Positions 1 through 5,060 of a stretch of DNA of 5,060 nt are shown here, piece after piece. Each line of letters starts with the position of its first letter. Within the stretch, counting starts at the first letter, position 1. The position numbers are program-made. The stretch comes from a virus (Duplodnaviria > Heunggongvirae > Uroviricota > Caudoviricetes): IMG/VR virus record IMGVR_UViG_2778261344_000001, positions 1-5,060 of that record; one strand, 5' to 3'.

Positions 1-3000
1 GAAAAACGAGTATTTTTAGTCATCCTGTTTACCTCTTTCTCAGGGAGTTTAGTCTCCAGGATTTCCGGGGCGGTTCACTTTCAACTAGCTATTCACTATT
101 GGAAATCTTAAGAAATGGAACAAACAAGTTACAGCAAACTATCACAGCGAGAAATTGATCGCGCTGAAACTGATTTACTCATCAACCTGTCAACGCTTAC
201 CCAGCGCGGTCTGGCAAAGATGATTGGCTGTCATGAATCGAAGATAAGCAGAACGGACTGGAGATTTATTGCTTCGGTCTTGTGTGCTTTCGGAATGGCA
301 TCAGACATCAGTCCGATTAGCAGGGCTTTTAAGTATGCGCTTGATGAAATCACAAAGAAAAAATCCCCGGTGGCCGCCGGGGACTCTAAGCAAATTGATA
401 TGCAATTCTGAGGGAATTACTGGATCAATCCACAGGAGTCATTATGACAAATACAGCAAAAATACTCAACTTCGGCAGAGGTAACTTTGCCGGACAGGAG
501 CGTAATGTGGCAGATCTCGATGATGGTTACGCCAGACTATCAAATATGCTGATTGAGGCTTATTCAGGCGCAGATCTGACCAAGCGACAGTTTAAAGTGC
601 TGCTTGCCATTCTGCGTAAAACCTATGGGTGGAATAAACCAATGGACAGAATCACCGATTCTCAACTTAGCGAGATTACAAAGTTACCTGTCAAACGGTG
701 CAATGAAGCCAAGTTAGAACTCGTCAGAATGAATATTATCAAGCAGCAAGGCGGCATGTTTGGACCAAATAAAAACATCTCAGAATGGTGCATCCCTCAA
801 AACGAGGGAGGTTCCCCTAAAATGAGGGACATCCCTCAAAACGAGGGAAAATCCCCTAAAACGAGGGATAAAACATCCCTCAAATTAGGGGATTGCTATC
901 CCTCAAAACAGGGGGACACAAAAGACACTATTACAAAAGAAAAAAGAAAAGATTATTCGTCCGAGAATTCTGGCGAATCCTCTGACCAGCCAGAAAACGA
1001 TCTTTCTGTGGTTAAACCGGATGCTGCAATTCAGAGCGGCAGCAAGTGGGGAACAGCAGAAGACCTGACCGCCGCAGAGTGGATGTTTGACATGGTGAAG
1101 ACTATCGCGCCATCAGCCAGAAAACCGAATTTTGCTGGGTGGGCTAACGATATCCGCCTGATGCGTGAACGTGACGGACGTAACCACCGCGACATGTGCG
1201 TGCTGTTCCGCTGGGCATGCCAGGACAACTTCTGGTCCGGTAACGTGCTGAGCCCGGCCAAACTCCGCGACAAGTGGACCCAGCTCGAAATCAACCGTAA
1301 CAAGCAACAGGCAGTCGTGACAGCCAGCAAACCAAAACTCGACTTGACAAACACAGACTGGATTTACGGGGTGGATCTATGAAAAACATCGCCGCACAGA
1401 TGGTTAACTTTGACAGTGAGCAGATGCGTCGGATCGCCAACAACATGCCGGAACAGTACGACGAAAAGCCGCAGGTACAGCAGGTAGCGCAGATCATCAA
1501 CGGTGTGTTCAGCCAGTTACTGGCAACTTTCCCGGCGAGCCTGGCTAACCGTGACCAGAACGAACTGAACGAAATCCGCCGCCAGTGGGTTCTGGCTTTC
1601 CGGGAAAACGGGATCACCACAATGGAACAGGTTAACGCAGGAATGCGCGTAGCCCGTCGGCAGAATCGACCATTTCTGCCATCACCCGGGCAGTTTGTTG
1701 CATGGTGCCGGGAAGAAGCATCCGTTATCGCCGGACTGCCAAACGTCAGCGAGCTGGTTGATATGGTTTACGAGTATTGCCGGAAGCGAGGCCTGTATCC
1801 GGATGCGGAGTCTTATCCGTGGAAATCAAACGCGCACTACTGGCTGGTTACCAACCTGTATCAGAACATGCGGGCCAATGCGCTGACTGATGCGGAATTA
1901 CGGCGCAAGGCTGCCGATGAACTGACTTGTATGACCGCGCGAATTAACCGTGGTGAGGCAATACCTGAACCAGTAAAACAACTTCCTGTCATGGGGGGAA
2001 GACCTCTAAACCGTGCACAGGCTCTGGCGAAGATCGCAGAAATCAAAGCTAAGTTTGGGCTGAAAGGAGCAAGTGTATGACGGGCAAAGAGGCAATTATT
2101 CATTACCTGGGGACGCATAATAGCTTCTGTGCGCCGGACGTTGCCGCGTTAACAGGCGCAACAGTAACCAGCATAAATCAGGCCGCGGCTAAAATGGCAC
2201 GGGCAGGTCTTCTGGTTATCGAAGGTAAGGTCTGGCGAACGGTGTATTACCGGTTCGCTACTAGGGAAGAACGGGAAGGAAAGATGAGCACGAACCTGAT
2301 TTTTAAGGAGTGTCGCCAGAGTGCCGCGATGAAACGGGTATTGGCGGTATATGGAGTTAAAAGATGACCATCTACATCACTGAGCTAATAACAGGCCTGC
2401 TGGTAATCGCAGGCCTTTTTATTTGGGGGAGAGGGAAGTGAACGATAGCTACCGACAGTTTGAAAACTGGTGGTCAAAAGACAAAAGCCAGTTCACGGGA
2501 GACGATGAATTAAAAGAGTTTGCCTGGGTGATATGGCAGGCATCGCGCTCTGCTATTGAACTGGATATCGACTGGCCCGAATCGAATGACGACTTTTGGA
2601 AAGATGGTGAAGAAGGTGCTTATGCGATGGGTTATGAGGATGGGCGTGACAAAACGGTAATTGCAGTAATGAAAGCCATCAGGGCCGCAGGAATCAAAGA
2701 AAAGAATTTCGATTAAGCAAATATCACTTCAATAAATCGCTTTTAAGGCATCACAATCGCTCTGTAGCGAGGTAAACGCGTGCAAGGCATGCCAATAAGC
2801 AGCGAGAATGAAAAATGCGTCAGAATGCGTTTGAGGAGGTTTTAAGAAATGAGTACGATAGCTGAGCTTGTCAGGGCTAATTTTCGTGAAGAGTTGGTGC
2901 GTTGGTATCGGTATCGTTCATCGTCCAGTTTGCCGCTTGATGAGTTGTATGAGCATTCACCTGCCGCACGACGCTATCCGCGTGACCGTGTTCTTCGACG

Positions 3001-5060
3001 GTTGTTCAAACTCAACAATGAGTTTCAGCGCAACAGAATTATCCGGAGTCTGGATTTAAAGTGAAGGAGTGAGCATGAGCGACCTATCATTAACCCAGCC
3101 AAAGCTAAAAGAATGTCCGTTTTGCGGCGGTAATGCTCGTCTGTGGGTTGAGGCCGGAATAAATATTGATGTGTGGGGCTATGCAGAATGTGACCTCTGT
3201 GAAGCCAGGGGGGCATGGGCACCATCAGTTGCTGCGGCGGCTGAAAAATGGAACCGGAGAGCAGGAGATGAAGCAAACCTTTCTGCTTCGCAACGAAGCA
3301 ATCAGAAATAACGCCATAGACGCCATTCTCTCACTACCCATCGACGACAAGTCACCCCACGAAGTCCACGTTAAAGAACCCAAGCGCAGCAAAGCGCAGA
3401 ATGACCGTATGTGGCCGATGCTGAACGATGTTTCGCGTCAGGTGCTATGGCATGGTCAACGGCTGGCGCCGGAAGACTGGAAAGACCTGTTCACTGCCCT
3501 GTGGCTTAAGACCAAAAAACTGGAGCAACGAAGTGTGCCTGGTATCGACGGTGGCGTTGTCATGCTTGGCGTGCGTACCAGCAAAATGCGGAAGGCCAGC
3601 ATGACTGAGCTTATCGAAATCATGTTCTGGTTCGGCTCAGAGCGCAACGTGCGGTGGAGTGATGACTCCCGGCGAGAGTATGAATGGTCACAACGAAAAG
3701 GTAGGGCTGCATGACTATCAAATCAAATACGCCAGCACACGACAAGGACTGCTGGCAAACGCCGCTTTGGCTTTTTGATGCACTGGATATTGAGTTTGGA
3801 TTCTGGCTGGATTCGGCAGCGAGCGACAAAAATGCTCTGTGCGCTCACTGGCTAACTGAGGCCGACGACGCGCTCAATTCTGAGTGGGTAAGCCACGGTG
3901 CAATCTGGAATAACCCACCGTACAGCAATATCAGGCCGTGGGTGGAAAAAGCCGCTGAGCAGTGCATACAACAGCGACAGACGGTAGTTATGCTTGTGCC
4001 AGAGGATATGTCAGTCGGATGGTTCAGCAAGGCTCTGGAGAGTGTTGACGAAGTTCGCATCATCACTGATGGACGGATTAATTTTATCGAACCATCGACA
4101 GGGCTGGAGAAGAAGGGAAACAGCAAAGGCTCCATGCTGCTGATTTGGCGACCGTTCATCAGTCCTCGACGAATGTTTACTACTGTATCCAAAGCGGCAT
4201 TGATGGCGATCGGGCAGGGCGTCAGGAGGGCGGCATGAGGCGACAGCGACGAAGTATCACCGACATCATCTGCGAAAACTGCAAATACCTTCCAACGAAA
4301 CGCTCCAGAAATAAACGCAAGCCAATCCCAAAAGAATCTGACGTAAAAACCTTCAATTACACGGCTCACCTGTGGGATATCCGGTGGCTAAGACATCGTG
4401 CGAGGAAAACAAGGTGATTGACGCGATGATTTATTCGGGGCTATATTCCTCACGCGCCAGCAAAATCTGGCGTCGGGATTGGCGTCCTGGATAGAGACCG
4501 CGACAGATACACGCCGCGAGCGTGTTTTTTATTGTCGTATGCACGCGCACATCTGAATTATGGTGGGCTGTGTGGGGGCGGAGAGATCCGCGCCGGTCGG
4601 TTTCCCGGTTACGCCAACCCTGCACAGTTCACCACCAGACGATTGGCGTCGTCGGTGGTGAGTTATTAAGAAACCACCAGAGGGCGTCATTATGACAACT
4701 CAAATTTCTGTTGAAACTCTCTCCCCGATCACCCATAACCAGATTCCTGTTATTACCACCGAACTTTTGGCGCAGCTTTACGGCACTGAGCCGGTGCGTA
4801 TTCGCCAGAATCATCATGAGAACAAAGTACGCTTCGTTGAAGGGAAACACTTTTTCAAAGTTGTTGGTAATGACCTTAAAGAATTGCGGGTAGCTTTAAA
4901 CTACTCACAAAATTTGCGGGTTACTTTAAGTAACTCACAAAATTTGCAACCATCTTTAAGAGGGTTACAAATTTCCCCGAAAGTGAACCGCCCCGGTTTT
5001 CCTGGAGAGTGTTTTATCTGTGAACTCAGGCTGCCAGATCATCGTTTCTGATGGAAGCAT

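Follow-up and report, generated by a model that had tools for sequence, protein, structure and literature searches.

Between the terminator tR2 and the recombination gene ninB, the viral DNA analysed here carries three small genes that phage lambda does not have at this place, which raises the questions of how they came to be there, whether they belong together and whether they act against host defences. A preliminary description had seen in them an undescribed cassette of accessory genes for counter-defence, inserted at the ninB ribosome-binding site. In the following, the window is the whole stretch analysed (5,060 nucleotides), the block is its segment 2426-3311, and the three genes are called A, B and the Lar-like gene (Table 1). 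Our best explanation, which as a whole we consider likely, is that window 2438-3267 is the nin-region front of a lambda-like Stx1a-converting phage, and on the comparisons given below the block is ordinary, already catalogued nin-region mosaicism.

Table 1 Features of the window discussed in the text
Feature	Coordinates	Strand	Family, comparison or annotation
Whole window	IMGVR_UViG_2778261344_000001, positions 1-5,060	one strand	Caudoviricetes virus
'ninA' ORF, 25 aa, hydrophobic, MTIYITELITGLLVIAGLFIWGRGK	2364..2441	+	Annotated ninA/NinA in Nil2, PhiR12_1
tR2 intrinsic terminator, hairpin and T-run	2393..2416	+	Lambda-identical; annotated tR2 in Nil2
Shine-Dalgarno region GGGGGAGAGGGAA, left joint	2425..2437	+	Belongs to ninB in lambda, to gene A here
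Gene A, acidic, 92 aa, pI 4.40	GTG 2438-2716	+	PF26207 (Phage_phiTE_015)/phrog_343
Relic ninB start ATTAAGCAAATATCACTTCAATAA	2711..2735	+	Comparison with mEp213, L008
Non-coding spacer, 132 bp	2717..2848	.	Never annotated in 171 phage records
Gene B, basic, 71 aa, pI 10.80	ATG 2849-3064	+	DUF7301 (PF23975)/phrog_1785
Lar-family zinc-ribbon gene, 78 aa	ATG 3075-3311	+	PF14354/TIGR03655; family domain at residues 10-63
Right joint and out-of-frame overlap	3264..3311	+	Last 15 codons of the Lar-like gene (..DEANLSASQRSNQK) from the ninB 5' end
ninB (Orf recombination mediator), divergent allele	ATG 3268-3714	+	PF05772, 165 bits, residues 1-131

The left joint and probable transcription of the block

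In an alignment with lambda (J02459), the window is nearly identical to lambda from ren through tR2 to GGGGGAGAGGGAAGT (2425-2439). The last matching letters are GGGAAGT, ending at 2439, beyond which lambda continues with C-ATG-AAA, the beginning of ninB, and the window with G-AAC-GAT. The alignment agrees with the preliminary description, in which the sequence followed lambda up to the ninB ribosome-binding site and then diverged: the junction falls at 2439, and the block is absent from lambda, where tR2/ninA directly adjoins ninB with nothing in between. The three small ORFs ahead of ninB also lie at the coordinates first given for them, and the ninB from 3268 is indeed divergent, its product being 43% identical to lambda NinB. 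The proposed insert of about 830 bp exists as a stretch of 828 bp (2440-3267), but it consists of three separately assorting modules and the spacer rather than of one unit. Its GC content is modestly shifted (A 0.455, spacer 0.424, B 0.477, Lar-like gene 0.528, against 0.505-0.53 in the flanks).

Lambda, phage 1717, mEp213, L008, PhiR12_1 and Bas106 lose similarity to one another either inside the Shine-Dalgarno motif GGGGGAGAGGGAA or immediately behind it, and the junction alignment bears out the proposal that the former ninB Shine-Dalgarno now serves gene A. The GTG start of gene A overlaps the TGA of the ninA ORF (GTGA, the lambda counterpart being ATGA), and gene A would be translated off the old ninB Shine-Dalgarno through stop-start coupling at this GTGA. 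The ninA ORF, which contains tR2 and is retained in most of the loci compared, is connected by -4 overlaps on both sides, to ren through ATGA and to the next gene through GTGA, and a chain of such overlaps extends through P, ren, ninA and A. The joining of nin genes through ATGA overlaps has been described previously (PMC8022706). The segment 2364-2433/2440 is common to phages with unrelated replication genes. Farther along, B and the Lar-like gene would be translated from Shine-Dalgarno sequences of their own (GAGGAGG at 2833-2839 and AAGGAG at 3063-3068, respectively).

The tR2 hairpin has an 8-pair stem with 6 G-C pairs, followed by TTTTTATTT. Within 2426-3311, neither a sigma-70-like promoter on the + strand nor a terminator was found in a consensus scan. 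Because tR2 is intact and the block has no + strand promoter, readthrough of tR2 is probably needed for expression of the block, as had been expected, and the block is most likely transcribed from pR past tR2. A, B and the Lar-like gene would then be transcribed only within the pR delayed-early operon, following N-dependent readthrough of tR2; we infer the N-dependence, as the window does not include nutR or N. A moron, as defined by Juhala et al. (2000), is an additional gene that separates two neighbouring genes of a relative and has its own promoter and terminator. The block was initially taken for such an element, and its position between genes adjacent in lambda (tR2/ninA and ninB) fits, but it is not a classic moron because neither a promoter nor a terminator of its own was found inside it.

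Families and occurrence of the three genes

A and B had been described as lacking a recognisable family, but both belong to named ones (Table 1). Gene A matches the phrog_343 profile over residues 1-92 (E 4.6e-29), and its PF26207 assignment is made through homologs 96-99% identical to A, which carry this family as a precomputed tag. In a deep profile search, the family comprised 432 cluster representatives, the distant members of which are likewise without any named domain; with P0206 (755 aa, repetitive), the match is confined to a small portion of the profile. The conserved core of the family does not include the acidic stretch of A, which is a variable insert. The AlphaFold2 model of A is poor (pLDDT 63) and gave no Foldseek matches in the PDB.

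Gene B matches PF23975 with 91.5 bits (cut-off 27) over positions 1-64 of the 65 in the profile, and the protein has an invariant YPRDRVLRR motif. Its 88 homologs are all from Enterobacterales and include no fusions. The predicted structure is helical (pLDDT 74.5), and no Foldseek match with E below 1 was obtained for it in the PDB or BFVD. A match of the gene B alignment to P22 Cro in a PDB profile search was rejected as an artefact, since it arises only from the included P0114, a Cro::DUF7301 chimera.

The third gene is Lar-like, as was first proposed, with both profile scores above their cut-offs (PF14354, 41.3 bits against 28.6; TIGR03655, 62.3 bits against 39.6) and a match to phrog_599 (E 9.3e-39). 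The protein is 36% identical to Lar/RalR of Escherichia coli K-12 (b1348; E 9e-10), and in the pairwise alignment the CxxC..CxxC cysteines of the two proteins coincide (CPFCG..C..CE), as does E(K/R)WN(R/K)R.

The block is not undescribed, contrary to the preliminary description. It is 100% identical to deposited Stx1a phages (LC645428 and others), is present in 933W, VT1-Sakai, Stx2 II and Nil2, and is found at a coverage of at least 80% in 437 of 5,426 complete E. coli genomes, in which it is annotated; the RefSeq names of its genes are hypothetical, DUF7301 and Lar family. Roughly 8% of complete E. coli genomes, major EHEC Stx phages included, carry the conserved small proteins A and B, whose protein-level conservation extends across divergent enterobacterial prophages, always at the nin-region front. 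In diverged lineages A and B are neighbours both as A-B and as B-A, and this might reflect more than a shared position. A literature search for DUF7301, PF26207, phiTE_015 and the 933W and Stx2 II locus tags found no paper, and lar is already among the listed accessory genes of Stx phages (PMC3430580). Because the region is well sampled and already annotated in Stx phages, the window itself adds little that is new.

Recombination joints and probable order of assembly

Breakpoints between modules lie at 2433-2440, 2532, 2710/2724, 2835, 3082 and 3264-3268, and as judged from the sequences compared, all joints are at a Shine-Dalgarno sequence or a start codon. The breakpoint at 2532 is seen in phage 1717 and mEp213, and the C-terminal two-thirds of gene A beyond it is a separately exchanged block. 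The spacer accompanies gene B in some phages (block 2710-3082) and is missing in others, in which the B module begins at 2835; considered as an sRNA or structured element, the spacer gave no sign of RNA structure on either of its two strands (folding z-scores of -0.25 and +0.40) and no Rfam match. At 3082, after the same AAGGAGTGAGCATGA, other phages carry different genes, and P22-like phages align with the window from 3264/3269 onward. At least ten combinations of A, B and the Lar-like gene were counted, in both orders, among them B-Lar, A-NinB, B-A-NinB and A-B-other. These counts are illustrative and not frequencies, since the IMG/VR architecture survey used the best 80 matches per search and is thereby biased to close relatives. 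The three genes, as these arrangements indicate, move between phages independently and not as a unit, and the idea of a cassette was not borne out.

At the site of the relic ninB start, mEp213 reads ..TTCGATGAAGCAAATATAC.. and continues into ninB, and L008 reads ATGAAGCAAATATCACTT; in mEp213, window positions 2711-2724 and 3267-3280 align to the same bases. The change of the ninB-start ATG to ATT at the relic created the TAA stop of gene A. At the other end, the Lar-like gene overlaps ninB out of frame by 44 nt, and the same tail, DEANIHASQRSNQK, is found at the C-terminus of unrelated A-family proteins encoded directly next to ninB; in the sequences compared, the gene abutting ninB, whichever one it is, runs into ninB out of frame. 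The internal joints together with the relic ninB start show stepwise assembly, in which the three accessory genes were stacked between the tR2/ninA segment and ninB by successive recombination. By parsimony among few genomes, gene A probably first stood immediately in front of ninB, an arrangement still seen in mEp213, and the segment composed of the spacer, B and the Lar-like gene probably entered second, at the ninB start. Such an entry would leave the relic start after A and make the Lar-like gene read the 44 nt into ninB.

The spacer and the relic start show that recombination debris is present at this locus, and A and/or B might accordingly be chance ORFs within it. The probability of this is close to negligible, since A and B have good Shine-Dalgarno sequences and starts, their full-length homologs keep amino-acid motifs down to 40-60% identity, and curated families exist for both. 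A and B are instead best regarded as real, conserved and presumably non-essential early lytic proteins.

Insertion of A, B and the Lar-like gene as one co-functional counter-defence cassette at the ninB ribosome-binding site is very unlikely, even though A-B-Lar is the commonest order among close relatives, one of the genes is of the Lar family, the small size and acidity of A (pI 4.40) recall certain DNA-mimic anti-restriction proteins, and expression early in infection is expected downstream of tR2. The modules are found apart or reordered (B-Lar without A, A alone, B-A, A-B with other genes), the internal joints and the relic start are those of stepwise assembly, the acidic stretch in A belongs to a variable insert and not to the family core, and A and B match no anti-restriction family (Pfam, NCBIfam, PHROGs) or structure.

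Possible functions and comparison with known systems

By analogy with characterized proteins, the Lar-like gene is the only one of the three with a known link to restriction escape. Restriction alleviation and an enhancement of modification were reported for Rac Lar (King and Murray 1995, as cited in PMC4041452), and following Rac Lar, the window's protein most likely shifts the balance of type IA restriction-modification enzymes toward modification over cutting of incoming unmodified phage DNA. Under the name RalR, the same Rac protein is reported in PMC4041452 to be a DNase toxin without specificity, and the identity of 36% (E 9e-10) to it would also suit a toxin of this type, acting in a type I toxin-antitoxin pair or attacking host DNA, in place of a restriction alleviator. 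We consider this reading distinctly unlikely, because the protein reaches 27.6 bits with the RalR equivalog model NF007260, for which the cut-off is 113, no antisense RNA and no convincing opposite-strand promoter were found in or near the gene, and the gene lies in a lytic operon behind tR2, unlike the ralR-RalA pair of Rac. Within 2426-3311, there is no Rfam match of any kind (Rfam may be without a RalA model), and the sole opposite-strand promoter-like site of the block is weak (9/12, 3065-3038) and at chance level. Restriction alleviation is the preferred reading of the Lar-like gene.

The counter-defence role first proposed for A and B was not borne out by a match to any named anti-defence family, solved structure or fold. 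No match to Ocr, ArdA, ArdB/KlcA and similar proteins was found with Pfam, NCBIfam or PADLOC, no anti-restriction family was matched among PHROGs, and no PDB sequence was matched save for the P0114-chimera artefact. The predicted structures, which are of low to moderate confidence (pLDDT 63 and 74.5), gave no Foldseek match with E below 1. Among the alternative occupants of the same slots, none has an anti-defence annotation, all those screened being function-unassigned. There is a small but appreciable chance that at least one of A (PF26207) and B (DUF7301) is an uncharacterised early-lytic protein of counter-defence or host takeover.

Acidic A and basic B could also form a functional pair independent of the Lar-like gene, for instance as inhibitor and partner or in the manner of a toxin-antitoxin couple. 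Their charges are opposite (pI 4.40 vs 10.80), and the two genes lie side by side, in the order A-B here and B-A in phage 1717, ST64T-like Salmonella prophages and several IMG/VR contigs, an adjacency that persists even at about 45-50% identity. A pair of this kind is highly improbable, however, given that PhiR12_1 and Bas106 have only B, that mEp213 and Hafnia and Salmonella prophages have only A, that in the Citrobacter prophages with B, gene A is either missing or 2.5 kb from it, and that family A has 432 cluster representatives against 88 homologs, from Enterobacterales only, for B.

On the explanation we prefer, nin-region mosaicism, the region illustrates lambdoid gene exchange at translation start sites with unusual clarity: a relic ninB start is preserved, and two unrelated proteins have an out-of-frame tail in common. 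The comparison helps to correct the annotations of NinB, Lar and DUF7301 in reference phages, and the position of a Lar homolog beside a phage Dam methylase is of interest for restriction escape. If A or B were a counter-defence protein, the nin-region front, with its swaps at ribosome-binding sites, would serve lambdoid and Stx phages as a fast-evolving arsenal slot.

Over 2426-3311, the window is 98.5-100% identical to 933W (ST933Wp31-p33), Stx2 II (p128-p131), VT1-Sakai (H0042-H0046), Nil2 (ORF29-31) and the Stx1a phages, all of which agree with it in gene order and in the flanks, with tR2/ninA to the left and ninB-Dam-ninE to the right. Nothing substantial differs except annotation: in the 933W record B is unannotated and the Lar CDS over-extended, and in several phage records NinB starts at TTG 3166. 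The Lar-like protein resembles Rac Lar/RalR (K-12 b1348) in its PF14354/TIGR03655 family, four-cysteine zinc ribbon, E(K/R)WN(R/K)R motif and 36% identity. It differs in its extra 15-residue tail, an out-of-frame reading of ninB, and its gene belongs to the nin region within the pR operon, whereas the Rac gene adjoins recET and is paired with the RalA sRNA, a partner of which no likeness was seen here. Lambda Ral is also a small early protein and is likened to Lar by function only, having the same reported activity; it stimulates de novo methylation and thereby lets unmodified phage evade type IA restriction (PMC3874165, PMC12707154), and its gene lies in the pL operon. As described in PMC8022706 and PMC5630979, lambdoid nin regions resemble the region analysed here: their genes, small and non-essential, lie between the replication genes and Q, with ATGA/GTGA overlaps, subsets that vary by phage and joints at gene boundaries, and they draw on a pool of 30-50 genes with about 10 per phage (PMC5630979). 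The region here departs from them in that its overlap chain is interrupted by the 132-bp spacer and by the 44-nt out-of-frame overlap with ninB.

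Identity of the window and prior record of the block

The 886-bp block at 2426–3311, which lies between the tR2/ninA side and ninB, had been sequenced and annotated before in Shiga-toxin (Stx) phages; it shows ordinary nin-region mosaicism and is not a new counter-defence cassette. From its sequence, the 5,060-bp window is assigned to the early-right region of a lambda-like Stx phage, and many Stx1a-converting phages, e.g. LC645428, match it at 99.9–100% identity. The block is present at 98.5–100% identity in 933W, Stx2 II, Stx1-converting phage, VT1-Sakai, Nil2/Nil3, the PA-series and others. 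The phage collection has 229 matching records and 106 that hold at least 80% of it; 437 of 5,426 complete E. coli genomes also do so. It carries locus tags ST933Wp31 to p33 in 933W, its RefSeq labels in E. coli read, in order, hypothetical protein, DUF7301 family protein, Lar family restriction alleviation protein and recombination protein NinB, and lar is among the accessory genes of a 2012 Stx phage comparison (PMC3430580). Therefore, the block is not undescribed, as the preliminary description had proposed; literature searches on gene A or gene B found no paper.

Features of the window
Feature	Position	Strand	Remark
cII homolog	115–411	+	
O	444–1382	+	with iterons
P	1379–2080	+	
ren	2077–2367	+	
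25-aa hydrophobic ORF	2364–2441	+	'ninA' in Nil2 and PhiR12_1 annotation; includes tR2 hairpin
tR2 hairpin	2393–2416		inside ninA ORF
Gene A	2438–2716	+	92 aa
Spacer	between gene A and gene B		132 bp
Gene B	2849–3064	+	71 aa
Lar-like gene	3075–3311	+	78 aa
ninB	3268–3714	+	Pfam NinB over residues 1–131
Dam-type methyltransferase	3711–4238	+	
ninE	4235–4417	+	
Promoter-like site	4418–4447		
Terminator	4509–4525		
ORF6N anti-repressor-like gene	4692–5051	+	

Public annotation of the region is uneven. Several records begin NinB at TTG 3166 (181–182 aa; window 3166–3714), across most of the Lar gene, against the ATG at 3268 where the NinB domain begins. The Lar CDS is over-extended into the gene B reading region in 933W (L170 1198–1557) and Nil2 (L002 2024–2386), and gene B lacks annotation in 933W.

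Outside the block, Rfam gives three matches over its gathering score at 4441–4639 (+), between ninE and the anti-repressor-like gene (c4-a1b1, 50.5 bits; isrK, 75.5; C4 antisense RNA, 66.7). This segment resembles an antirepressor-controlling RNA switch of the P1/P7 immI or Gifsy isrK type, located within the nin region. Weak 'snoRNA' matches (snR191, TtnuHACA21) in the O-gene iteron repeats at 792–911 fall under the gathering score and are almost certainly spurious. The Dam-family N6-adenine methyltransferase gene follows ninB via an ATGA overlap, at the position of ninC in lambda; this phage methylase lies two genes from a Lar homolog and may provide the operon with a second means of restriction escape.

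The Lar-like protein and proteins A and B

The Lar family assignment is borne out by scores above the curated cut-offs for PF14354 (41.3 bits vs 28.6) and TIGR03655 (62.3 vs 39.6). The protein shares 36% identity with K-12 Lar/RalR, and the alignment matches both the four cysteines and the WN(R/K)R motif; its score remains below the cut-off of the RalR equivalog model (27.6 bits vs 113). Rac Lar was reported to alleviate restriction and enhance modification (King and Murray 1995, cited in PMC4041452), and the mechanism of its analogue Ral has been described (PMC3874165, PMC12707154). Because of the 36% identity to Rac Lar, the best-supported predicted function is the same pair of activities, directed at type IA enzymes. 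The same Rac protein has elsewhere been described as a DNase toxin, and this activity is kept as a rival reading of the Lar-like gene.

The sizes and charges reported earlier for proteins A (92 aa, pI 4.40), B (71 aa, pI 10.80) and the 78-aa Lar-like protein hold; both A and B have recognisable families, contrary to the preliminary description. Protein B is a full-length DUF7301 member (PF23975, 91.5 bits; phrog_1785), and every one of the 88 homologs detected is about 70 aa long, comes from Enterobacterales and lacks fusion to another domain. Protein A belongs to phrog_343 and PF26207 ('Phage_phiTE_015'), a family with 432 cluster representatives in a deep profile search, mostly 80–100 aa. 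Three motifs run through the family (SR.QFE.W, WQASRAAIE.ELP and, at the C-terminus, IRAAGIKVK), and the highly acidic middle of the window's protein is a variable insert outside the conserved core. The only domain fusion seen in the A family is an N-terminal CxxCxGxG...CxC zinc-finger-like extension (phrog_3956) in some distant members, such as P0178 and P0189. P0114 (68 aa, Logan assembly) is a chimera in which the first 39 residues of P22 Cro run into the C-terminal half of DUF7301 (YPRDRVLRR...); a P22 Cro PDB match of the B alignment arose only from this chimera and was discarded.

Neither A nor B matched named families, defence models, solved structures or predicted viral folds, the structure models being weak to moderate (A, pLDDT 63; B, pLDDT 74.5), and none of the other genes found in their slots has a known function. 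Nothing links either to defence evasion, and that at least one of them is a counter-defence or host-takeover factor is considered unlikely. They carry opposite charges and are frequently adjacent, in either order, which could hint at a functional pair, although each is often present without the other. All that can be said is that A and B are real, conserved, early-lytic, dispensable-looking proteins; the function of these two widespread small proteins is the remaining interest of the block.

Junctions, modules and expression

The preliminary description was accurate in its account of the left junction and the ORFs. Alignment with lambda (J02459) shows near-identity from ren through tR2 to GGGGGAGAGGGAAGT (2425–2439), past which lambda reads C-ATG-AAA (ninB start) whereas the window reads G-AAC-GAT. 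The GTG at 2438 starts gene A and overlaps the TGA of the ninA ORF (GTGA) at the exact place of the lambda ninA/ninB overlap (ATGA), indicating that gene A has taken over the ninB Shine-Dalgarno (SD) sequence. The divergent ninB begins at ATG 3268 (43% identity to lambda NinB). The ninA ORF, MTIYITELITGLLVIAGLFIWGRGK, spans the tR2 hairpin and is open, with minor variants, in most of 170+ loci. Its stop always overlaps the start of the next gene, whatever that gene is, suggesting that the ORF may couple translation across the terminator.

Comparing the window pairwise with representative phages revealed sharp breakpoints across the block. The tR2/ninA segment (2364 to 2433–2440) is common to phages with unrelated replication genes. 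Lambda has ninB next, and the window has gene A; mEp213 and Stx2_EH0505 have a gene for a 68-aa membrane protein there, phage 1717 has another gene, and PhiR12_1 and Bas106 have gene B directly. In these last two phages, similarity to the window picks up again at 2835, within gene B's own SD. Gene A from 2532 (the C-terminal two-thirds) is swapped independently of the N-terminus. After gene B and a shared AAGGAGTGAGCATGA, with a breakpoint at 3082, come the Lar-like gene (window), a 60-aa gene (Stx2a_F723, Stx2_EH0505) or a 68-aa gene (Bas106). The right joint is the ninB start (3264–3268), where P22-like Salmonella phages start matching.

Architectures vary as well. Among 169 loci classed by tblastn, taken from the best 80 matches per search and so biased to close relatives, the orders were A-B-Lar-NinB (about 100), B-Lar-NinB (about 16), A-B-other-NinB (about 16), A-NinB (about 9), B-A-NinB (about 7), B'-A-B-Lar (5) and others. 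Phage 1717 (L007) is of the B'-A-B-Lar type and has two DUF7301 genes (836–1051 and 1518–1733): upstream of its A-family gene lies a 39%-identical paralog, and downstream of that gene a near-identical copy. In Salmonella, Hafnia and Citrobacter prophages, divergent members of both families also stand at the nin-region front, sometimes together as B-A and often alone. The block is three modules and not one insert; with separate breakpoints and such varied architectures, it is not a cassette.

A consensus scan found no + strand promoter or terminator within 2426–3311, and tR2 is intact. The block genes would therefore be made only when pR transcription crosses tR2, a step that requires N in lambda; the N gene and nutR lie outside the window. 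A moron has its own promoter and terminator, so the block does not qualify as one. The GC content of the block is modestly below that of its flanks, and the 132-bp spacer has no RNA family match and no unusual folding.

Assembly of the block

In mEp213, gene A adjoins ninB and runs through its start (..AAGAATTTCG-ATG-AAG-CAA-ATA..). At the matching spot after gene A, the window reads ..TTCGAT-TAA-GCAAATATCACTTCAATAA, a relic ninB start whose change from ATG to ATT gives the stop codon of gene A; Stx2_EH0505 retains ATGAAGCAAATATCACTT at this position. Any gene adjoining ninB continues into it in another frame and ends at TAA 3309–3311, and thus the window's Lar-like protein and unrelated A-family proteins from other loci end in a common tail, DEAN(L/I)(S/H)ASQRSNQK. 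In the simplest history, gene A would first have been placed directly against ninB, and a spacer-B-Lar segment would then have entered at the ninB start.

Every joint lies within purine-rich SD/start sequence. This agrees with published descriptions of the nin region, in which 30–50 small non-essential genes, tightly joined through ATGA overlaps, form a pool and a given phage has about 10 of them (PMC5630979, PMC8022706).
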